The position numbers were made by a program, and so were the translations under genes. This document shows positions 13,996-51,541 of a stretch of 64,000 nt of DNA, in pieces; the stretch's first letter is position 1; every line of letters starts with the position of its first letter. The stretch spans positions 64,255-128,254 of the IMG/VR virus record IMGVR_UViG_3300036770_008442; one strand, given 5' to 3'. Source of the stretch: a virus. The notes under the pieces were generated by a model that ran no database searches, was not told the origin of the DNA, and saw only the letters and a list, made by a program, of their open reading frames with translations.

Positions 13996-14026
13996 TTTTT
14001 GTATTGTTTATTTTTTTTTAATTTTT

Positions 14027-16051
14027 TTAGAACTTGCCTTCTAAAGATTTAGCTACCCAATTCAGATAATCATTTGAGTATCCTTTAACGGGGAGTTCAT
14101 TCTTTACAGACTCTGTGTTTTGTTGATTCTCATTCATCTTTTGAAGACCAATACTATTCAAGCCTAAAGTCCGAGTAGCCCAGAAGTTCTTAATCTGATA
14201 TGGGGTATCTAAGTTATAAAAGGCAGATTGTGCAATAATAGATTGCTTCTGTCCTTCATTTAAAGACTCCCAAATCGGGGAAAAAGACTCTGGCATTTGG
14301 TCGATAAACTTGTAACCAGTTTGTGTTCTTTCAGATTCATTTAGAATCTCATCTGCTTTTTGTGTTTGAGCAGTTGACTGGAATTTCTTCGCAGCCTCAT
14401 TTATGTTTTGTTCGGTTTTTTGTGTTTTAACCGATTCAATTAAAGAATCTATCTTGTTAGAGATTGAAGAATAATCTCCAGCAAATCCAGATTCATTTAA
14501 ATCACCACGAGATGCTACTTCAGCGCTTCTTCTTAAGTTGTTATTATTAGAAGAAGATCCATTAAAATTAAATTTCTCTGAAATAGAATCAACTTGAGAA
14601 ATATTACCGTTTAATTTTTCAGCAAGATAATCAGAATAAGCAATACCCTTATCCAAATTTTCTGCTAGGTATTCCGAATAGTTAATATTCTTATTTAAAT
14701 TCTCAGCAATGTATTCAGTATATTCAATTCCTTGGTCAAGTTTTTCTGCCAGATATTCAGAATAAGCAATACCCTTATCCAAATTTTCTGCTAGATATTC
14801 AGAGTAGTTAATATTCTTCTCTACATTTTCTGCTAGATATTCAGAATAAGAAATACTAGAGTCTAACTTTTCTGCTATGTATTCAGAATAAGAAATGTTC
14901 TTCTCGAGATTTTCAGCAACATATTCTGAATACTGAATTCCATCGTCGACCTTTTCTGCTAAATAATTAGAATACTCGATGGTCTGATCAACCTTTTCCG
15001 CAATGTATTCTGAATATGAAATAGACTTGTCCACATTTTCTGCTAGATACTTAGAGTAAGAAATAGTTTTATCTAGATTTTCAGCTAAGTATTTAGAATA
15101 TGAAATACTGCCGTCGAGATTTTCAGCTAAATACTCTCCGTATTTAATAGCATTCTCTAAATTTTCAGCGAGATATTCTGAATATTTTTCTAACTTGGCA
15201 ACTCTTTTTTCCAGAGCAGCACAATCAACATTATTATTTGAAGATTCGCTAACATTTTTCATACCAGAAATCTGGGCTTCTATATCTTCCATTTTTCTTT
15301 TGAGGAAAATGGAATACTGATTCAGTTCATCAGCAGTAACGTATTCTTTTTTAGACTCCATGATATTGGATTTATTTTTTTCGGTGTTAAATATTTTTTG
15401 AAACTCTTCGTTATTTTCAACTTTATATATCTTCAGATCGGAATGATTTTTTAAACCCAACGACTCATTTACACATTCCAATTTATCTGTAATTGAACCC
15501 TTGGTAATTTTAGAAAAATCATCCATTGTAAATCCTGCGCTTTCGTATACTCTTTCCAATTGTGCATCCTTAAATCCAGGATCTGCAACGAGATCATAAG
15601 TGAAAATTTTCTTGATCTGAACTTTTTTATCGGGTCCGACATTACCTGCAGCTCTAGAAGAAATACAAAGGGGTATTCCTGCATCAACTAATTTTTTAGC
15701 GATTTGTCCAGCCGGGGTATCTAAAAGACGGACCTTAATTTTAATTAGTCTGCCCTCCTTATCGTGTTCTAAATCCTCGATAATATGGGAAATATTTTTT
15801 AAAGAGACATCAAATTCTTTCGGGTGATCCAATTCACCTAAAAGTCTTTTCTGTTTGATTTTTTCCCTTAAGTATTCAAGATGGGGTAAATATTCTCCCT
15901 CTTCGTAGACTCGATTATTATTATTTTCCTTTCCAAATTCAGCAGCAATACCTTTCAAAACATATTCATCCTCCGAAGTTTTAGAAACCGAAAGATTATT
16001 ATTCTGTTTTTCTAAGATAAATAATAAATCCCCATTTGAGAAATTGTGCAT
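14027..16051 (-). CDS. gp21: Prohead protease (gp21) fused to a repetitive scaffold/core domain
   Basis: NNNNRVY, LGELDHP, ISHII, LDTPAGQI, ISSRAAG, TYDLVADPGF; then 14-aa tandem repeats and a coiled coil. Confidence 0.92.
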   Translation of the reverse strand: MHNFSNGDLLFILEKQNNNLSVSKTSEDEYVLKGIAAEFGKENNNNRVYEEGEYLPHLEYLREKIKQKRLLGELDHPKEFDVSLKNISHIIEDLEHDKEGRLIKIKVRLLDTPAGQIAKKLVDAGIPLCISSRAAGNVGPDKKVQIKKIFTYDLVADPGFKDAQLERVYESAGFTMDDFSKITKGSITDKLECVNESLGLKNHSDLKIYKVENNEEFQKIFNTEKNKSNIMESKKEYVTADELNQYSIFLKRKMEDIEAQISGMKNVSESSNNNVDCAALEKRVAKLEKYSEYLAENLENAIKYGEYLAENLDGSISYSKYLAENLDKTISYSKYLAENVDKSISYSEYIAEKVDQTIEYSNYLAEKVDDGIQYSEYVAENLEKNISYSEYIAEKLDSSISYSEYLAENVEKNINYSEYLAENLDKGIAYSEYLAEKLDQGIEYTEYIAENLNKNINYSEYLAENLDKGIAYSDYLAEKLNGNISQVDSISEKFNFNGSSSNNNNLRRSAEVASRGDLNESGFAGDYSSISNKIDSLIESVKTQKTEQNINEAAKKFQSTAQTQKADEILNESERTQTGYKFIDQMPESFSPIWESLNEGQKQSIIAQSAFYNLDTPYQIKNFWATRTLGLNSIGLQKMNENQQNTESVKNELPVKGYSNDYLNWVAKSLEGKF
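14597..15184 (-). repeat. 14 tandem 42-nt (14-aa) repeats, consensus YSEYLAENLDKxIx
   Basis: Counted directly in the translation of the gp21-scaffold ORF. Confidence 0.9.
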
Positions 16052-29060: not shown

Positions 29061-30665
29061 TTAAAGAGTAAACTGTTCTGGTTCATCTTCCCCTCCCTCA
29101 CCCCCTCCTTTTTCCTTAGCTTCCTTCTCCGCTTGCTCTGCTTCTTTTTTCTTATATTCCTCATTTTTCCGATATTCATCCATCGATAATCCTAGCCATC
29201 TCTTAATTAAAAATTCCTTATCAAAATAAGGTTCCTCTTCATCCCCTATTCTTTGATTCATTTCCGACATAGAGTTTACAAATTCAGATCTCTTTGTTAA
29301 ATTTTGGAGATTTAAGAATTCTTCAAAGATGTTTTCCCTTACATAATCCAGTCCTAGATTAGACTTAAAGGATCGGTCTTTAGATAATTCTGGAAAATCT
29401 AAACACATTTGGATATAAAGAGGCTTAACCAATATTTCCTGAAAAACCGATCTAATTCTGGTTAAAAACTTTTCATAACGGATTTCATCCCTCTCTAGCT
29501 GATCTATACTAATCTGATAATTAGCCGGGGTTCCACCTCTAAAAGAAAATCTAGCATATGGAATTTTTGAATCTAGTTTGAGCTTATTGTAGAAATAAAC
29601 AACATTTTCCATCACATTAAAATCTGGTCCATTGGGATCTAAAGTCTCGATAGAAGGGGACTGTCCATCTTTTTCAGGAAAAAGATAGTTCTTGTAGAAT
29701 TGCACCTTAGGTCTACCATTGACTGTCAATTCTCCAGAGAAATCATTCAGTTCTATCTCCTCCTTGTAAATAGACATTAATTGACCCAAAGTTTGCATGG
29801 CTTTCTGCTGGGATTGGCTTCCAACCGGTATAACAAATTTGAGACGATATGAAGCATTCATAACATTCCAAATAACCCGGGTATTCTCCATAATTCTAAG
29901 AATATTGTACGATCTCACAAGTCTTTCTACATAACTAACTCTAGAGATCGTATTTCCCTTAGCATAAGACAAATAAATCACCTGCTCATTTTGGAGCTTT
30001 CTGGTCATATTATTATCATTTGGATATTGGATCCAGATCTGTTTAAATTCACCATTTGGCTGAGGCTCTGTTGCTGGCTGAAGGGAAGTCGGATCCAATT
30101 CTTTGAATCCGACTATCTTTTTACCATTTGTAGAATAAACAATCTCAAAAGCCAAAAATCCATCAATAAGAAACTGTCTGAAATATTGCCAAGCTAAAAC
30201 TGATTGTTGAAACCCAAACATCATATACAGATTCCTATATGATTCATCTATTCGATCTAATATTTCTTTCTTAATTTCTATATTAGCAATGCCGGGATAT
30301 GAAAAGAAGTTCTTATCGTCATAATTTATAGCATCATCTGTCAAGGTATCCAGAATAAAATCAATCTCCCCGTTGAGAGAAAATTTTCTTAGAAAATCCC
30401 TTTTGCCCAGATAGTCTTTATCAAAATAAGCAATATATTTTCTAATTTTTGTGTCCTGATATCCCAAAGTCCAATAGAAGGCGGAATTTTCAGTAAATCC
30501 GGTTCCTTGCTCTTTGAAAAAATTAGATTCAGTTTGGCCAATAGCTTGGGAATTCCGGATTACCATATCCTCGTATTTCATCCCAAACTTCCCTATGCGA
30601 CTCAGGTTTTTATATAAGACGTTTAAAAAACTTCTTTCCTGAACGTTATCCAAAAATCCGGCCAT
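29061..30665 (-). CDS. gp20: Portal protein, T4 gp20 family (paralog 2)
   Basis: FRQFLIDG, SYVERLVRSYNILRIME...I, IETL, YFYNKLK...KIPYARF, RDEIRYEKFLTRIRSVF. Confidence 0.9.
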   Translation of the reverse strand: MAGFLDNVQERSFLNVLYKNLSRIGKFGMKYEDMVIRNSQAIGQTESNFFKEQGTGFTENSAFYWTLGYQDTKIRKYIAYFDKDYLGKRDFLRKFSLNGEIDFILDTLTDDAINYDDKNFFSYPGIANIEIKKEILDRIDESYRNLYMMFGFQQSVLAWQYFRQFLIDGFLAFEIVYSTNGKKIVGFKELDPTSLQPATEPQPNGEFKQIWIQYPNDNNMTRKLQNEQVIYLSYAKGNTISRVSYVERLVRSYNILRIMENTRVIWNVMNASYRLKFVIPVGSQSQQKAMQTLGQLMSIYKEEIELNDFSGELTVNGRPKVQFYKNYLFPEKDGQSPSIETLDPNGPDFNVMENVVYFYNKLKLDSKIPYARFSFRGGTPANYQISIDQLERDEIRYEKFLTRIRSVFQEILVKPLYIQMCLDFPELSKDRSFKSNLGLDYVRENIFEEFLNLQNLTKRSEFVNSMSEMNQRIGDEEEPYFDKEFLIKRWLGLSMDEYRKNEEYKKKEAEQAEKEAKEKGGGEGGEDEPEQFTL

Positions 30666-30685: not shown

Positions 30686-32335
30686 TTATGCTGTGGGTTC
30701 TTCAGTTCCTTCCGCGGGTGGAGCGGGCTCGCTCGGGGTGGCTGCGGGAGCTTCTGGCTGCTCGCCTTCTGGACTTTGTCCTTCAGCTTCTCCAGATTTT
30801 TCGCTCTCTTTCTTTTCCTTTTTTCTTTTCTCTTTTGCTTCCATGTTTGCCTTAATATCATCCTCGGTCATTCCCAGATAATTTTCTATCAGATAAGCAA
30901 GAGAAAAGAAAGGTTTTCCATCTGCATCTGTTAATCCATATAGAGACGAAATAGATTCTTTTTTCTTGGACATAGTTTCCATCTCCTGATTAATTCGAAA
31001 TGGATTATCAGAAACAAAGGTTAATCCTAATTGGCTTTTAAACAGATGATCCTTTTCTAGTTCTGGAAAATCTTTACACATCTGGATCCAAAGTGGCTTT
31101 ATGAGGATATCCTGGAAAATAGATCTAAGCCTTGTAATAAACTTAGAGAATCTTATTTCCTCCTTATCCAAACCCTCTGCAGAATTTGAATATTTTCCAA
31201 TTGATCCACCGTCCGGTCCCTGAAATCTCGAAAATGGAATTTTAGATTCTTGAGCAAGCTTATCGAAGAAATAAGCTAAAGGACCAGGGTCATTTAAATT
31301 GGGTCCAGCGTTGCTGATTGGTTCTATTGTAGGAGTACCATTAACACCAGAAGGCATCAGATAATTTTTATAGAACTGAATCTTAGGTCTTCCGTCTATA
31401 GTTAATTCTCCGCTTTCGTCGTTGAATCTGATATCCTCTTTATAGATACTCATTAATTCTCCCAAAGTCTGCATAGATTTTTGAGGAGATTTGGTACCAA
31501 TAGGAACGGTCATTTTCATTCTAAATGAAGCATTCATCACGGACCAAATCACCCGAGTATATTCGATAATTCGGAGAACATTGTATGGTCTAATCAGTCT
31601 TTCGGTATAGCTAATTCTAGAAACCGAATTTCCCTTTGCGTATGAAATGTAAATAATCTGGGAATCGTATAAAAGCCTTCTTCTATTCTCATCCTTTGGG
31701 TATTGGTACCAAACATTTAAATAAGTTCCATCTTTTTGTTTTTCAACAGAAGGCATCAAAGTTGTTGCATCTAACTCCTTAAATCCAATAATTTCTTTCC
31801 CGTTATCATTGTAAATAATTTCAAAAGCTAAAAATCCATCGACCATTAACTGTCTGAAATATTGCCAAGCACTGATATCATCAGTGAAGCCAAACATATC
31901 ATACAGCTTTTTATAGTTAAGATCTATTCTATCGATTACTTTTTCTTTGATACCCGTTAGATTTAAAAAAGCAGGGTAGGCAAAAAAATTAAAAGAATCA
32001 TAAGATATAGCCTCGTCACAAACAGTATCTAAAATGTATTCAATCTCTGGATTAAGAGCAAACTTTCTCAGATAATCTCTTTTTCCTGCATAATCCTTAT
32101 CGAAATACCCAATGAATTGCTTTGTTGAAGTGTCCTGTCTGGCTAAAGAATACAACATGGCCTCATCTTCGATGGGACCTTTTTTCATGAATTCCGCCTC
32201 GACCTGACCGATGGCCTGGGAATTTCTAACCACTAAATCTCCGTACCTCATACCAAAGGTACTAAGAGACTTCACAGAATCTCTGATTCTTTGAAATACT
32301 GGATTCCCCTGTGGGCTTTCTGTAAATCCTGCCAT
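30686..32335 (-). CDS. gp20: Portal protein, T4 gp20 family (paralog 1)
   Basis: PEIE...DEAI, FRQLMVDG, SYTERLIRPYNVLRIIE, YFFDKL...KIPFSRF, EEIRFSKFITRLRSIF. Confidence 0.9.
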   Translation of the reverse strand: MAGFTESPQGNPVFQRIRDSVKSLSTFGMRYGDLVVRNSQAIGQVEAEFMKKGPIEDEAMLYSLARQDTSTKQFIGYFDKDYAGKRDYLRKFALNPEIEYILDTVCDEAISYDSFNFFAYPAFLNLTGIKEKVIDRIDLNYKKLYDMFGFTDDISAWQYFRQLMVDGFLAFEIIYNDNGKEIIGFKELDATTLMPSVEKQKDGTYLNVWYQYPKDENRRRLLYDSQIIYISYAKGNSVSRISYTERLIRPYNVLRIIEYTRVIWSVMNASFRMKMTVPIGTKSPQKSMQTLGELMSIYKEDIRFNDESGELTIDGRPKIQFYKNYLMPSGVNGTPTIEPISNAGPNLNDPGPLAYFFDKLAQESKIPFSRFQGPDGGSIGKYSNSAEGLDKEEIRFSKFITRLRSIFQDILIKPLWIQMCKDFPELEKDHLFKSQLGLTFVSDNPFRINQEMETMSKKKESISSLYGLTDADGKPFFSLAYLIENYLGMTEDDIKANMEAKEKRKKEKKESEKSGEAEGQSPEGEQPEAPAATPSEPAPPAEGTEEPTA

Positions 32336-33455: not shown

Positions 33456-33812
33456 TTAAACATTGTAGGAATTATCCTCCCCTGTTATATATGAAAAAGG
33501 AATAGTCTTAGGTGATTTGGGAGGGTGAATTTTTTTCCATCCTTTTGCAAATCCATTTTTAGCTATCTGAGTGTAGTAAGCAAAGGGATTATTAGACTTA
33601 GTGGGATCAAATCTGTTCCAATATCTGCAGAGATCCTCCATGGCAAAAGCCATACAATCCTCTTTATCTTCTGGATCCCGGTAAGCCATTTTTTTGGATA
33701 TACCCTGAATCATCAATGAAAACATTTTAATCGTATCAGGGGTTAATTGACCCCTTTCTTTGGACTCTAAAATTGCTTTCATGAGATCCACATTTTTAAC
33801 ATAATCAGCCAT
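33456..33812 (-). CDS. gp55: Late transcription sigma factor (gp55-like)
   Basis: YVKNVDL, EDC...AME...RY...FDPTKSNNPFAYYTQIA; start reassigned to MADYV at 33812 (ORF-track start 33932). Confidence 0.85.
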   Translation of the reverse strand: MADYVKNVDLMKAILESKERGQLTPDTIKMFSLMIQGISKKMAYRDPEDKEDCMAFAMEDLCRYWNRFDPTKSNNPFAYYTQIAKNGFAKGWKKIHPPKSPKTIPFSYITGEDNSYNV

Positions 33813-33832
33813 CGTACTTAAGGGATTCTTTA

Positions 33833-33861
33833 TTTTTAGAATTAACCCAAAAGTTAGTTTC
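33833..33861 (-). promoter_or_regulatory. Candidate ECF-type (middle) promoter GAAACT-N17-TAAAAA driving gp55
   Basis: Exact motif and spacing about 21 nt upstream of the gp55 ATG. Confidence 0.6.
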
Positions 33862-33864
33862 GGG

Positions 33865-34044
33865 TTAATCTTTTTCCTCCAAATTTTCATCCTCATCGGA
33901 AATGAGCGAATCCCCAGAGGGTTTTTTGCCATCCGGAGCTACGCTCATTCTACCTTCTATATTATCTACAAAAGGCTTTGGAGAATCGGATTGGTCCGCT
34001 GCCGAAGGAGCAAAAGACCAAACCCTACTTAATATTTTTTTTAG
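33865..34044 (-). CDS. Putative -1 frameshift extension (59 aa) of the 841-aa protein
   Basis: Open -1 frame after A AAA AAC TAA: LKKILSRVWSFAPSAADQ...MSVAPDGKKPSG...LEEKD*. Confidence 0.55.
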   Translation of the reverse strand, partial: LKKILSRVWSFAPSAADQSDSPKPFVDNIEGRMSVAPDGKKPSGDSLISDEDENLEEKD

Positions 34045-36566
34045 TTTTTTTTTGACTCTAAACTTTCCCCTAAATTGTAACCCATTTCCTTATTTACCTC
34101 AAAATCCAAAGATGAATCTTCCTTTGAAGTAGGAGCTTGTGCTAATTCCTGATTAAGCTTTGAAATTTCTGGATTCTTTTGCTTCACGTTTGTTACTCTA
34201 ACTGGATATTTAATTCTATTTATACCCCCTGGAGCTTGAGCGAAATTATGGTTGGTCTTTTTTAATTCAGTCTCCGAAATTGGATTATCCGAATCCTCCG
34301 GAGCATATGCCATATTTCCGTTTTTCAAGTTATCTAAATCCTCATCATTTTCATTCACATTATAACCCATTTTTAAATCTCCAGGTCCCTTAATTTTCAC
34401 ATCGAAATTAGTAGCTTTCTCTTTTCCCTCTGGTGCTTCTTCTAGTCCATCATTTCCAGATTTCTTAGAAGATTTTTTATTAGATACCTTTGAATCCTCA
34501 TCAGGTGCACTTGAGGTATTTGATTTTAGAGAAGAAGCCGGAGTTTTAAATTTTGTCTTAGCCGTTTTAGGAGAAGGGGCTACTGATAATTCTTGTTCTT
34601 TAATCTCCTCCTGATATTCCATATCATACTCTGGTTCTTCAGATTTTCCCTTTAATGCCTCTTCAATATCAACAATTTCATCTACTCTAAAATCACCAGT
34701 TCTACCGTTGTCCATTAAAACAGTATAAGATCCACTAGTATTATCAACCGAAATAATTTTCCCAGTGTTTCCCGATTCTTTCACTTTAACATAGCTTCCG
34801 ATGGTAAATCCATCATCCTCATAAAGATTTAAAGGCTGCTCCTTAATTCCAGATTCAATTGTTTCTATCTCTTGATTTACTAATTGCCATTTTTTTCTTA
34901 GAGCATTAAGTTCCATCTCTAAAATATCATGGGCTCTTTCAATTTCTTTAGAATTTGAATAAATAGGATTTCTGTCCATCAGATCATTAATCTTATTTAT
35001 TTCCGATTCGACAATAGCAATATTCTCCATAATTTTAGCTCTATCGTTTATCATGATCGATCTAATCTTGGATTCACCCTGTAAAAACTCTGTTAATCCC
35101 TCCGAAATATCATATTTTAAGAAATCCTTAATCATGGAGGTTGCTTGAGTTCCATTGACCTCATATAAAGAATTTTCTCTCATAGATTCATTAATTCTAT
35201 TGAGATAGATTTTTCCTCCCCATTTAATAAGATTGACGGAAGCTCCTTCATATAGATGTGATTCTAATCTCTTCGCAAAATCTATCTCAACAATAGACTC
35301 ATAGTTTTCAAAAAGTCTTATAATATCAGAAACGACCTTAGACTCGTTGATACCAAAAATTCCCGAGATCTCCAATGAAATTTGTTTTGAAAGACTTAAT
35401 TTATCCAAGGTATTTAATTTGACGTCTCTAGTTGAAACTTGTGTTGATCCATTTTCTTCGAAGATCTTAAAAGATTTATCACCAACATAAACGCTTAGAC
35501 CTTCCTCGTTGACCTTCACATAAGGAGCATAAAAAGATTCTAATAATGATCTATATTCTTCCGGGAATTCCATAAATTCCTTCGAGTTTAATCTTCTTAG
35601 CCCACTGTTGGATGCTTCGAAAATATTGTTTCCAATAGTAAAGACAGTCTTCCCGCCACCTATTAAAACAGGGGAGAATAGTCTTGAAACTTTTGTGTTC
35701 AAAGAATTTACAGGGACATTGAGATTTTTACTACTGCTCTCCATCAATCTCAATGAATTAAGAAGACCTCTGACAGCTGGATTAAAAGACCATCTAGAAA
35801 TATCTTTAGAAAGAAGATTAACAGATTTGTTTTCCGATATCATCCACTTGTTCAGGGATTCCAAAACTGGTGAATAAAAATCAGATCCAGCACTTCTTTC
35901 AATGTTATAAATAGTTTTTGCAACCTCAATCTCTGGCTTTAATAGACCTACTTTATTGCTGATATTTTCAAAGATTCCTTTGACCTTATCATCCCATGTA
36001 AAATTGTGAAGGTCGTTTACAAAAGATTCCACAACCAAAAATTCAGGAAGTCCTTTGGTCTTCAAAAGATTCTGATATTTCTCAGCGACAATCTTCATCT
36101 GCGGATGGTCGTATATTCCGCTTTCCTTGATATCTAAAATAGATTCATAAACCCCCAAATTGAAAACTTTTTGCGATTCAAGGAAAGATCTTGCAGAAGA
36201 ATCTTTTTGAGCGGATTCTGCCAAACTTTCAGATATCATTCCATGAATGTTATTTTCGGGAGCTTCATCAGTCCGATAAGATCCAGCATTATTTAAAGAA
36301 TTTCTGCCCAATCCGCTCCAAGATTCCATGATTTTCTGAGCAGCAGCCTTGGACCTATCCAATTCTTGTGTTCTAATTTGTTGATAGGGATCAGGTTCTA
36401 CTGAAATGGAATTATCCAATGATTGAACAGATTCCATAATTTGCTTCTCGTTTAAATCTGAAATATTCCCAGATTCTATCATATTGATATGAGATTCGCA
36501 TATTGATTTTACCTCTGGAGATTTTGTTGTATCCCTAAGTGTTTTCAATTGGTTGAGTAAATCCAT
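34041..36566 (-). CDS. Large late protein (probable prohead core/structural) with a KOW/SH3-like segment and a low-complexity AP-repeat tail
   Basis: Many xxES/xNE sites, coiled coil, GSYVKVKESGNTGKIISVD; GATATATA at 36594-36601. Confidence 0.7.
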   Translation of the reverse strand: MDLLNQLKTLRDTTKSPEVKSICESHINMIESGNISDLNEKQIMESVQSLDNSISVEPDPYQQIRTQELDRSKAAAQKIMESWSGLGRNSLNNAGSYRTDEAPENNIHGMISESLAESAQKDSSARSFLESQKVFNLGVYESILDIKESGIYDHPQMKIVAEKYQNLLKTKGLPEFLVVESFVNDLHNFTWDDKVKGIFENISNKVGLLKPEIEVAKTIYNIERSAGSDFYSPVLESLNKWMISENKSVNLLSKDISRWSFNPAVRGLLNSLRLMESSSKNLNVPVNSLNTKVSRLFSPVLIGGGKTVFTIGNNIFEASNSGLRRLNSKEFMEFPEEYRSLLESFYAPYVKVNEEGLSVYVGDKSFKIFEENGSTQVSTRDVKLNTLDKLSLSKQISLEISGIFGINESKVVSDIIRLFENYESIVEIDFAKRLESHLYEGASVNLIKWGGKIYLNRINESMRENSLYEVNGTQATSMIKDFLKYDISEGLTEFLQGESKIRSIMINDRAKIMENIAIVESEINKINDLMDRNPIYSNSKEIERAHDILEMELNALRKKWQLVNQEIETIESGIKEQPLNLYEDDGFTIGSYVKVKESGNTGKIISVDNTSGSYTVLMDNGRTGDFRVDEIVDIEEALKGKSEEPEYDMEYQEEIKEQELSVAPSPKTAKTKFKTPASSLKSNTSSAPDEDSKVSNKKSSKKSGNDGLEEAPEGKEKATNFDVKIKGPGDLKMGYNVNENDEDLDNLKNGNMAYAPEDSDNPISETELKKTNHNFAQAPGGINRIKYPVRVTNVKQKNPEISKLNQELAQAPTSKEDSSLDFEVNKEMGYNLGESLESKKN

Positions 36567-36651
36567 TTTTTGGTTTAGTTTTTTTACTTTGTATATATAT
36601 CTTATTTAAGTTAAATAAAATCTGTACTATATATTCAGTATGATTTGAGAA

Positions 36652-42249: not shown

Positions 42250-43893
42250 TTAAAACTGATTCGAGTACGGACGATATGGGTCTTCTTTAGATGCACTCAT
42301 AGGACCATTTAAGACATTGAATATACCAGATAAAAGAAATTTTATTTGCTTCAGGTCATCAGTGTATACTACGTTTTCCTCTGATGATTGGTTTTTTATT
42401 TCTTTCTTATTTTTACCAGGATTACCTGTCATCGAATCTGAAGATTTCAGAGTCGTACTAGATTGGGTAATTTCAGCAGTAGAAGGTTTGGGCATTGATT
42501 TTTCCTGTGTTTCCGATGAATTTACTTCTTCTCTTCTCTGAGGATTTAAAGAACCTAAAAAATTGGTTTCTTTCTTCATCTCAACCCTATCCAAAGCTCT
42601 AGATACAGATTCCTCCAATTTTTCCTTTCCTTTTAAAATAGATTCTCTAAGATTAGGAGCAGATTCAGAGATCTTGCCGACTACTTTTTCCATCATGGAT
42701 AAATTATCACCCCCCTTCAGATCCTTATTTGAAGATGTATTATCCAAAAAGTCGGGGGATTCTTCCACAAAAACATCAGATTCCCCAGTAGCAGAAATTT
42801 TAGAAACAGGATTGGAAAGTCTCTGCAGGTTCTCTAATGAAAAATTGTTCGGAGATGAATTAGATATTCTAAATCGATCAAGTTCTTCTTTTAGATAAGA
42901 AGGTTCTTCTACCAAACCTTCTTTCTCCGAAGCTCCCAATTTCTTCACATATTCCATAAATTGGCCAGCCAGGTTCTGGTCCTCAGTCAGGTTAGATAAA
43001 GATTCAGAAATCTGCTTTATTAAAGGGTCCGATTGATCTACAGCGAGTTGTCCGATGTCAATAGAATTACTTAAATCTCGATTCCGGACTAATCCTGGGG
43101 ATTCTTTAGAAAGAACTAAGGGATTATTAAGATCTAGTAGTTGATTTAAATTTTTAGAATTTTCCTCCTGGGTTGGGGATATTTTATTCTTTAGATCGAA
43201 GGAAGCTCCATCAACAATAGCCTGGCTATTTTCAGGATTCCCAATAAGATCAGGGATCTTACCTGAATTATTTTTTTCAGAAATACCTAAAAGCGCCTCT
43301 TCCAATTTTCTCTGTTCAATTTCTCTTTGTTCAAAACTGTTCTGAATATTTCCTAAAATTTCCTCGGTTCTTTTTTCCTCTCTTGGAATTGGGGATTCCA
43401 AATCAGGATTTGTGGTGATAACATTACTTAGATTTGATTGGACCAGTTTCTGTGGAGTTTCTCTTTCAGGAATAGGTAATTTAGATCCCTTGATAATTTT
43501 CGGGGGAGATTCAGAAACTAGGTTTTCCATCGTCCTGTTTTCTGAATTTTTATTTTCAAAAAGATCTATAGCCTTCGAAAATTCATTCATAGAATCCTTA
43601 AAAAATTTAGACACATCAAGAGGAGATTTTTTATTAGTATCCCGATCCATATTGTCTAATTTTTTCGAGATGGAATCAGTAAATTCTCGAAACAATTCCT
43701 TCTGATTTTTGGATTCTATGTTAACCCTGTCATCATCAATTCCTTTTTTTTTCTTCTTTTCATCTTTCGCTGAATTTTTTTCAATCCTATCAACCTTTGA
43801 ACTGTTATCTCGAAGTTCTTTATAAAAGATATCCATATTTTTATTTAGAAGAAGCATTTCCTCTAAAATTTTATTGGTATCTTTTCTGGTCAT
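42250..43893 (-). CDS. Low-complexity late protein, candidate tape measure / baseplate hub protein
   Basis: Follows the tube and chaperone genes; 547 aa, Ser/Asn/Glu-rich; GATATATA at 43912-43919. Confidence 0.45.
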   Translation of the reverse strand: MTRKDTNKILEEMLLLNKNMDIFYKELRDNSSKVDRIEKNSAKDEKKKKKGIDDDRVNIESKNQKELFREFTDSISKKLDNMDRDTNKKSPLDVSKFFKDSMNEFSKAIDLFENKNSENRTMENLVSESPPKIIKGSKLPIPERETPQKLVQSNLSNVITTNPDLESPIPREEKRTEEILGNIQNSFEQREIEQRKLEEALLGISEKNNSGKIPDLIGNPENSQAIVDGASFDLKNKISPTQEENSKNLNQLLDLNNPLVLSKESPGLVRNRDLSNSIDIGQLAVDQSDPLIKQISESLSNLTEDQNLAGQFMEYVKKLGASEKEGLVEEPSYLKEELDRFRISNSSPNNFSLENLQRLSNPVSKISATGESDVFVEESPDFLDNTSSNKDLKGGDNLSMMEKVVGKISESAPNLRESILKGKEKLEESVSRALDRVEMKKETNFLGSLNPQRREEVNSSETQEKSMPKPSTAEITQSSTTLKSSDSMTGNPGKNKKEIKNQSSEENVVYTDDLKQIKFLLSGIFNVLNGPMSASKEDPYRPYSNQF

Positions 43894-49747: not shown

Positions 49748-51541
49748 TTACAACAGTTGGCTGAACGATGAATAAAATCCTCCTTCTTTCGTTCCACTTT
49801 CGTTCGTATTTCCTCCATTTAGCTTTGAATCTATCAAATCCCTATACTCATCCTCTAAAGAATCATACATTTCCCCAATCATATCATAAAAAGCGGAGGA
49901 TTCAAAAATCGAACTAATGTTAACTATTGTCATGGCGACGTCATCATGACCAGTCTGGCTGGAATAAGTCCCACTAGAATTTAGACCAAATGAAAAAAGC
50001 TCAGGGATAGTCCAATCTTTTTCATTAATAATGATTTTATTGGATCGGATAAGGGATCTTACTATCTCGCAATATTTAAGCTTATTTTTCTCATTGTATT
50101 TAATGCCGGGCTTTAGAGATTTAGAAGATTCCGAATGTTTGGTGTGGATGATAATCTCCTGTGAAAGATCATCATTTACAAGCAATTTATCCAACAGGAA
50201 TTCGCCCTTGAAATTAACCTCCATTAGGATTTTAATATTTTCAGGATTAAAAACTTTGACAATCAGACATTCTAGGAGTCTTCTAAAATCCTCTATTTGG
50301 ATTTCATTATCCCGATAAACCCCAACTTGAAGGAGTCCAAAGAAATCAGATTCGTCATTGAACTCCCTGGTGTTTTCTATTACTTTTCTAGGCAGAGGAA
50401 CAACCTTGAAAACATTTAAGACAGTAAAATCCCCTCTGCTCCCCCCTGCCAAATCTATGGAGATAATAAATCTATTTCTTTCTAATACTTCACCCTCCAA
50501 TTGAAACTTAGGATGCCATTTAAAATTTTCATAGGATAGACCTAAATCATGAAGCACATCTATCTCTTTCCAGACGTATTCAGTTTCATTGAATTTCATT
50601 TTTCTGAGCTCATTAGAACCCAATAAAAGCGTAGATGAACTTAAAAACTGATTACCGTATTCCTGATTGAAAAGTTCTTGTGATCCAAGGTTAGAGACCT
50701 CTTTTTTTTTCCATTCTTCATCCCTTCCTGGAACTTGCCACCAATCAACCCGAATAGGATTAAAACTATTTTCTCCCCTAAGTGCTCCTTGATAAATCTC
50801 ATAAAACTTATTCATCCCATTGGGAGTAGAAGTAATGATTATTCGAGATACATTAGAGGAGGATACAGTAGGATATGTAGATCTGAAGAAAGATTCAATA
50901 AAATTTGGATGAATGTGTGCAAACTCATCCATATAAAGAAAGTGGATCGTAAAACCGATCGCTGAGGTTTTAGTGGTTGTTTTCGCGATTGCCCTGCAGC
51001 CATTATCAAATTTCATGGACATCACATTATTTACGATGATACCAGGTTTTAAGAACCATGGAAGTCCCTTAACAATGGATTTAATCTTATCCATTAATTC
51101 TTCTGCAGTTGAACCCACGTTTGCTAATATCATAGCATTTTTATCGTGATTGAAAAGCAGATACCATACTAAAATAATAGCAGAGGTAATAGATTTACCA
51201 ACTTGTCTGGGTGCTAAAAAAATATTAAATCTATGAGCCTGATATTCTCTTAAAACAGATTCTTGATAGTCTCTAAGTTTAACGTAAAAAAGTCCATCGT
51301 CAGTCATAACTCTGCAATATTTAGCAAAATAAACGACGTCCTTTGCACACTTCTGCATTTCTAGAATCTCCTCCTCTGTATATTGCCAGAGTAGATTTGA
51401 TCTTTTTAATTCAGGATCACCGTCATGAAATGGGTTGTCTACTGATTTATAATCCAGACCTTGCTCTTCTATCTCATAAAGAAGTCTTTCTACTTTTTTA
51501 GTACTCCAATAATTAGAGCTTATTTCTTCAGGTTCGTTCAT
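49748..51541 (-). CDS. gp17: Terminase large subunit (gp17)
   Basis: LRDYQ, PRQVGKS Walker A, YMDEFA Walker B, TSTPNGMNKFY, QEYG, IDLAGG..GDF, HDDVAM. Confidence 0.95.
   Translation of the reverse strand: MNEPEEISSNYWSTKKVERLLYEIEEQGLDYKSVDNPFHDGDPELKRSNLLWQYTEEEILEMQKCAKDVVYFAKYCRVMTDDGLFYVKLRDYQESVLREYQAHRFNIFLAPRQVGKSITSAIILVWYLLFNHDKNAMILANVGSTAEELMDKIKSIVKGLPWFLKPGIIVNNVMSMKFDNGCRAIAKTTTKTSAIGFTIHFLYMDEFAHIHPNFIESFFRSTYPTVSSSNVSRIIITSTPNGMNKFYEIYQGALRGENSFNPIRVDWWQVPGRDEEWKKKEVSNLGSQELFNQEYGNQFLSSSTLLLGSNELRKMKFNETEYVWKEIDVLHDLGLSYENFKWHPKFQLEGEVLERNRFIISIDLAGGSRGDFTVLNVFKVVPLPRKVIENTREFNDESDFFGLLQVGVYRDNEIQIEDFRRLLECLIVKVFNPENIKILMEVNFKGEFLLDKLLVNDDLSQEIIIHTKHSESSKSLKPGIKYNEKNKLKYCEIVRSLIRSNKIIINEKDWTIPELFSFGLNSSGTYSSQTGHDDVAMTIVNISSIFESSAFYDMIGEMYDSLEDEYRDLIDSKLNGGNTNESGTKEGGFYSSFSQLL

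Follow-up and report, generated by a model that had tools for sequence, protein, structure and literature searches.

A deeply conserved A9 tract is a recoding site in an undescribed family of phage genes

The DNA analyzed here, called the window, is a 64,000-nucleotide stretch of a virus (positions 64,255 to 128,254 of IMG/VR record IMGVR_UViG_3300036770_008442), and our subject is the 3' end of one of its genes, a minus-strand open reading frame (ORF; 34041-36566) that encodes 841 amino acids (aa) by standard decoding. The gene closes with GAG TCA AAA AAA AAC TAA on the minus strand. Its last codons contain a homopolymer of nine A residues (A9; 34045-34053), which we identified from this sequence and its relatives as a conserved slip tract. 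A single C at 34044 follows directly, and the 0-frame stop codon TAA (34041-34043) lies immediately 3' of it. Read in the 0 frame, positions 34044-34050 form A_AAA_AAC, a formal X_XXY_YYZ slippery heptamer. The -1 frame starts at CTA (34044), reads CTA AAA AAA ATA onward and ends at TAA (33867-33865), giving an extension at 33865-34044 that consists of 59 sense codons (33868-34044) and the stop, with the peptide LKKILSRVWSFAPSAADQSDSPKPFVDNIEGRMSVAPDGKKPSGDSLISDEDENLEEKD. The +1 frame is shut after 5 codons. A first-pass annotation of this DNA had described a slippery A_AAA_AAC before the stop and a 59-codon open -1 frame, and both are present as it described them. The expected products of such a site would be a short isoform of 841 aa and a long isoform of 900 aa. 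As a homopolymer within a coding region, the A9 tract has the hybrid length (at least nine) of slippage of the Thermus dnaX or insertion sequence (IS) 9A type.

Relatives of the gene were collected in several ways. At the protein level there were 284 homologues, and the 120 of them that were listed share 42-91% identity with the query. A search with the single protein gave no related loci, and an alignment of 30 homologues was used instead. The first sample of loci comprised 80 viral contigs fetched by peptides of the central domain, a choice independent of the C-terminus and of the site. The second comprised 73 loci on metagenome contigs, fetched by the second motif of the extension itself and not by the site. 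Merging the two gave 154 sequences, in which the site is present with 30 nucleotides (nt) of upstream sequence in 147, truncated in 2 and off the contig in 5. Some contigs were shared by both collections, and we therefore counted distinct contexts (n = 85).

The run length was checked in assembled Logan contigs, which report only a consensus length and hide minority variants. The source run (X1) agrees with A9, and a DNA contig of another study (X5) spans 33830-34093 with zero differences and zero gaps. An RNA-library contig from a relative that is approximately 91% identical (X20) passes through the tract without a gap and likewise has an A9 consensus. The contigs of a further set (X4) end at 34029, short of the tract. 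The first-pass annotation had named a homopolymer assembly error as the finding that could overturn its proposal; the same A9 layout in these contigs and in many related loci excludes it.

In the first sample, 76 of the 80 contigs include the end of the gene, and 75 of these 76 end in xxA AAA AAA AAY followed by TAA or TGA. These 75 loci have a -1 frame that is open over 50-62 codons (that of L032 is cut by the contig end) and a +1 frame that is shut within 1-26 codons. The second sample holds 68 standard layouts, two with a run of ten (A10) and one in which gene and extension share a frame; of the remaining loci, one is too short upstream for the frame to be assigned and one begins inside the extension. 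Wherever the site is present, in 149 related loci from viruses or metagenomes, the run has at least nine A's without exception, and A9 followed by one variable base (Z) and TAA or TGA occurs in 82 of the 85 distinct contexts (TAA in 75, TGA in 7). At the protein level, 119 of the 120 matches listed among the 284 homologues end in KKN, and none of these 120 carries the extension. The KKN ending with an open -1 frame, which the first-pass annotation had proposed to look for in homologues, is thus conserved among relatives.

The base-by-base pattern within the site is uneven. The ninth A, the first in the run, occupies a synonymous third codon position outside the heptamer, and all 82 standard contexts keep it, within the codons TCA (36), TTA (29), GTA (9) and CTA (8). 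Codon usage in these genes does not favor such endings to this degree (TCA is 22% of Ser codons, A-ending codons are 44% of Leu and GTA is 29% of Val), and in each of the six codons before it the commonest third base reaches a frequency of only 0.41-0.73. In contrast, the Z base differs among contexts (60 with C, 19 with T, 3 with G) and is A in the A10 form; because Z varies, the A-site codon is not the conserved element. An A_AAA_AAN heptamer in the 0 frame is nevertheless found in every variant. The window contains two other A9 runs inside ORFs on the minus strand, at 43744-43752 in a 547-aa ORF and at 50702-50710 in a 597-aa terminase-like ORF, where the run encodes the KKK of W-KKK-E. The latter served as a control and was gone in 5 of 5 relatives. 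Runs of at least ten A's are absent from the 64 kb, with approximately 3.5 expected. Judged by these comparisons, the run that closes the 841-aa gene is kept among homologues beyond what the protein sequence needs.

The 0-frame stop is also maintained, through synonymous codon choice in the -1 frame. The first codon of the extension is CTA, TTA, CTG or GTA and never CTT, although CTT makes up 31% of Leu usage. All 25 contexts with Ser as the second codon use AGY, whose share of usage is 16%.

A few loci depart from the standard layout while retaining the run. In L157 and L158, A10 is followed by GCT TAA, so that the extra base is compensated and a -1 shift is still required. The A9 of L079 lies in another register (GAA AAA AAA ACC) without an adjacent stop; its 0 frame ends 12 codons further on, and a -1 shift is again needed. 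L150 keeps A9 but has gene and extension in one frame (...GSKKNPSRNFYFAPK...). The -1 frame of L150 stops 3 codons past the run, so a slip there would yield the short form. A 74-aa database ORF seen as protein only (P0127) similarly reads KKN-LSRNFYFAPK in one frame. The constant element among these relatives is the tract, and not any one frame layout.

The leaders of the homologous gene in L076, L079, L080 and L081 (near 3484) contain A9 or A10 between a TATATAAT element and the ATG. Such leader runs of distant relatives could give rise to reiterative transcription where the mRNA begins. We considered the extra A9 and A10 runs of these four loci as a second frame change and rejected the idea, since they are leader runs plus one in-frame run inside the L081 gene and none marks such a change.

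The extension evolves as coding sequence in the -1 frame. By the Nei-Gojobori method its pN/pS is 0.36 and its dN/dS is 0.24, with pN smaller than pS in 178 of 181 moderately diverged pairs; when these bases are translated in the two remaining frames, the ratios are 1.10 and 1.40. Among 45 distinct extensions, differences at codon positions 1 to 3 of the -1 frame are 0.39, 0.31 and 0.56, highest at the third. These values show purifying selection on the -1 peptide. The peptide has no start codon of its own: across 51 distinct sequences there is no ATG, GTG or TTG in the -1 frame from the upstream stop to extension codon 24, seven complete extensions lack a start codon altogether, and the Met of the MSVAPDGK motif is replaced by Leu or Phe in several clades. 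In clade 3 (L063-L081), terminator-like hairpins with T runs (for example GAGAACGTAG...CTACGTTCTC TTTTTTTT) follow the stop of the extension and not that of the 0 frame. In clade 1 (L002-L049), a small palindrome, AACCTCGAGGTT, lies just past the extension's stop and shows paired changes to AACCCCGGGGTT.

Annotation pipelines call the gene as 841 aa and leave the following 180 bases empty. The long isoform is consequently missing from every database entry examined, including the 120 listed homologues. When 1.84 billion representative proteins were searched with an extension profile, the only matches were small ORFs (27-79 aa), a single fragment from the 841-aa gene family and repeat-motif matches in three longer proteins. 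Of these, the WD40 repeat protein P0131 and the other repeat protein P0133 were set aside as chance matches to a short APxGK motif.

The feature is beyond chance because it is conserved. On the comparative evidence, recoding at this locus is real and the site deeply conserved; it belongs to a kind already known, in a phage gene family that is undescribed.

We then considered the signals that could accompany such a site. A hairpin with a UUCG loop (33988-34024, minus strand) folds in the window: over 111 nt the minimum free energy is -29.9 kcal/mol (z = -3.7), and 0 of 200 shuffled sequences do as well. It begins 19-22 nt past the heptamer and is lineage-specific. RNAalifold found 0 consensus pairs in the 100 nt downstream, both in 25 sequences of two clades and in 11 of a third, so that no conserved 3' stimulatory structure at the 5-9 nt spacing typical of -1 frameshift sites was recovered from these alignments. 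The hairpin to which the first-pass annotation drew attention is therefore real in this sequence, about 20 nt downstream as described, but it is not a conserved stimulator. A Shine-Dalgarno-like 5' stimulator is not conserved either, with GAGGAG present only in part of one clade and absent from the window and from two clades, and an Rfam scan of 33700-34300 gave nothing relevant.

The gene that follows on the minus strand (33456-33812) encodes a gp55-like late sigma factor of 118 aa and matches phrog_234 (E = 3.7e-15), as the first-pass annotation had proposed for the downstream gene; it lies outside the recoded gene. Its likely start, ATG 33812, is 52 nt past the extension's stop, and in relatives ORFs of 118-119 aa begin 49-61 nt after that stop. 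Upstream of the 841-aa gene, a promoter-like motif, GATATATA (36594-36601, minus strand), precedes the ATG by 28 nt. It has 16 matches in the window, all on the minus (coding) strand, against 3.8 expected; sites include 12228, 16077, 36594, 43912, 49670 and 54924. The motif often lies 20-30 nt upstream of the starts of structural genes, among them the sheath and protease genes, and is probably the late-type promoter of this lineage. The window shows no enrichment of TATAAATA, the canonical T4 late promoter (7 matches against 7.6 expected). The position of GATATATA fits late expression of the 841-aa gene but does not prove it. The sigma-factor neighbor and the shared promoter-like motif suggest transcription by the host RNA polymerase (RNAP).

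We lean toward RNAP slippage on A9, with insertion of one A, as the main route to the 900-aa product. This reading is favored because the invariant feature is a homopolymer of hybrid length and not a codon pair, because no conserved stimulator accompanies it, and because nine is the published slip length. Passages of PMC1088944 and PMC5009743 state that bacterial RNAP slips efficiently at a run length of nine, that selection against such runs begins there, and that dnaX of Thermus yields two products from an A9 run. In the proposed sequence of events, most transcripts would be copied faithfully and give the 841-aa protein ending in ...SKKN. The phage presumably uses the host polymerase with its own gp55-type sigma factor, and this enzyme, with A9 filling its RNA-DNA hybrid, would occasionally realign and add one A. 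The A10 mRNA would be translated normally as ...SKKK-LKKILSRVWSFAPS..., ending 59 codons on, and the resulting isoform would gain an acidic C-terminus as well as two extra copies of the xxAP(x)G(K) motif of the tail. Some of the long product may also come from ribosomal -1 slippage on these A's. We infer all three of the step at which slippage occurs, the ratio of the isoforms and the function of the extension. Detection of VWSFAPSAADQSDSPKPFVDNIEGR, the peptide put forward in the first-pass annotation, would prove the long isoform, and Asn or Lys at residue 841 would tell ribosomal from polymerase slippage.

Several observations weigh against polymerase slippage as the main route. The sole RNA-library contig over the site has an A9 consensus, although it may derive from DNA and a minority of A10 would be hidden in it. 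According to part of PMC6260861, the E. coli RNAP is less prone to slip on runs of A than on runs of T. Furthermore, the two other A9 runs inside window ORFs are tolerated, so A9 slippage cannot be highly efficient here. This last point also favors a programmed -1 ribosomal frameshift at A_AAA_AAC, in which the mRNA is unchanged and the product reads ...SKKN-LKKILS..., either by tandem slippage of tRNA-Lys and tRNA-Asn or by P-site slippage with the stop codon in the A site. A ribosomal mechanism would suit the persistence of a correctly phased heptamer in all variants and the 0-frame stop that lies directly 3' in nearly all contexts, and it has a proven bacterial precedent in IS1, which the consulted portion of PMC4066793 describes as frameshifting at A_AAA_AAC with no established stimulator. 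We regard this route as a strong rival but the less probable of the two. The 3' structure is not conserved, the window's own hairpin being lineage-specific and 19-22 nt away. Z is free to vary despite the large gap in shiftiness in E. coli, where, in the passages seen of PMC5009743, A_AAA_AAC is far less shift-prone than A_AAA_AAG. Finally, the heptamer leaves unexplained why the ninth A, although synonymous, never varies. The recoding itself, as the first-pass annotation had it, is thus supported by a conserved extension that lacks a start, but the mechanism centered on the heptamer is not supported, given that Z varies and the ninth A is invariant.

A heritable switch, in which replication slippage keeps A9 and A10 genomes side by side and the long protein comes from A10 genomes only, appears very unlikely. 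Homopolymers are mutable, and an A10 form (L157/L158) and an in-frame form (L150) do exist. However, the A10 form is compensated and still requires the -1 shift, no locus among the 149 differs from its relatives simply by having A10 or A8, the contig from another study is A9, and the extension is borne by none of the 120 listed homologous proteins. Least plausible of all is an assembly artefact hiding one ORF or an independent small gene in the -1 frame, because, even though homopolymers are error-prone and Met opens MSVAPDGK in many relatives, the frame layout is identical in loci from many separate metagenome records, synonymous choice keeps the 0-frame stop, and the extension has no start within its conserved opening stretch of 24-32 codons.

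For the protein, the consequence of recoding falls on the C-terminal tail. An AlphaFold2 model built with 30 homologues (mean pLDDT 63) contains a helical region (residues 110-280), beta-rich domains (290-470), a coiled-coil hairpin (489-571) and a small SH3/Tudor-like barrel (592-633), for a folded core of approximately residues 110-640. Residues 641-841 have pLDDT below 40 and, on this model, are probably disordered. The isoforms differ in this tail, so recoding would alter the length and the end of a low-confidence region. The motif [LFMWIVY][ASE]x[AST]P occurs five times in tail residues 660-812 and twice in the extension, as WSFAP and MSVAPDGK; the idea that the extension continues a motif of the host protein is therefore borne out by the counts. 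The end of the extension is acidic, with 13 Asp and Glu against 8 Lys and Arg among 59 residues. One may speculate that the tail repeats are docking motifs.

Searches gave the 841-aa protein no name. It matched 0 families in PHROGs, only sub-threshold SH3-like entries in Pfam and no named relative in the ESM Atlas. The model had 0 Foldseek matches in the PDB at E <= 1e-3 and matched only uncharacterized phage proteins in BFVD, and the sole match in a wide VIA-align search was a generic helical hairpin at 496-585. A complex prediction of the core (110-640) with the extension scored 0.01 against a mark of 0.32, a result with no bearing either way. A distant homologue in LR756500 has 631 aa and lacks both tail and site. 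Matches to Lak phages also turned up.

The window is half of a 128-kb record with a CheckV completeness of 46%. It encodes a tail sheath, a T4-type prohead protease, a major head protein, two portal-like genes, a gp4-like head completion protein, DNA ligase and a clamp loader, a gene set that indicates a large T4-related myovirus. The portal-like genes are adjacent on the minus strand (29061-30665 and 30686-32335; 534 and 549 aa), and each aligns with almost the whole phrog_213 profile (E ~1e-55); a tandem portal duplication is unusual. The prohead protease homologue (14027-16051, minus strand) has 674 aa, of which protease families match only the first ~240 residues, and the remainder may be a fused scaffold-like part. 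A9 runs also occur in intergenic leaders on the minus strand (14011-14019 and 478-486), one of them between the protease stop and the major head start.

The slippage mechanism itself is textbook material. Searches of the literature turned up neither a description of the gene family nor a report of programmed transcriptional slippage in large or jumbo phages. The 85 distinct contexts, with their A10, in-frame and shifted-register variants, constitute a natural data set on selection at a homopolymer recoding site. Among phages, a comparison is T7 gene 10A/10B, which produces a minor isoform with a C-terminal extension of ~50 residues through a -1 shift just before the stop. Both cases would concern a phage gene with a minor, C-terminally extended isoform. 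The T7 product is a capsid protein. Its site, as passages of PMC5009743 have it, is a ribosomal one of the G_GUU_UUC type, unlike the A9 tract described here. With IS1 insA-insB', as portrayed in the relevant part of PMC4066793, the present site shares the A_AAA_AAC heptamer and the lack of an established stimulator, but it has nine conserved A's instead of six and a heptamer whose last base is free. In Shigella, mxiE and spa13 give extended products by transcriptional slippage that has been shown experimentally (passages of PMC5009743 and PMC1088944). There, as proposed here, one nucleotide inserted in a homopolymer produces a C-terminal extension from two overlapping frames; those are bacterial secretion-system genes, whereas the phage case draws on comparative evidence.

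The closest parallel is with dnaX, which encodes tau and gamma, and with the orfA-orfB fusions of IS elements, for which passages of Baranov et al. 2005 (PMC1088944) and Atkins et al. 2016 (PMC5009743) describe transcriptional slippage on runs of 9A or 9T. Like the Thermus thermophilus dnaX and IS sites, as those passages present them, the phage site has a conserved coding A9 of hybrid length, a shared N-terminus with two C-termini and no need for RNA structure. As with dnaX, the long form can be in frame (here L150) or out of frame (the rest) around the same tract. On a broader and tentative view, which we think doubtful as a whole, the A9 tract would act as a frame-independent splitter of isoforms, a phage counterpart of dnaX and the first slippage site for a gp55-directed polymerase, with the slippage ratio setting the proportion of proteins that carry five or seven docking motifs. 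Unlike in dnaX, slippage would yield the longer product in nearly all lineages, and the protein is a phage protein, known here from the comparison of DNA sequences.

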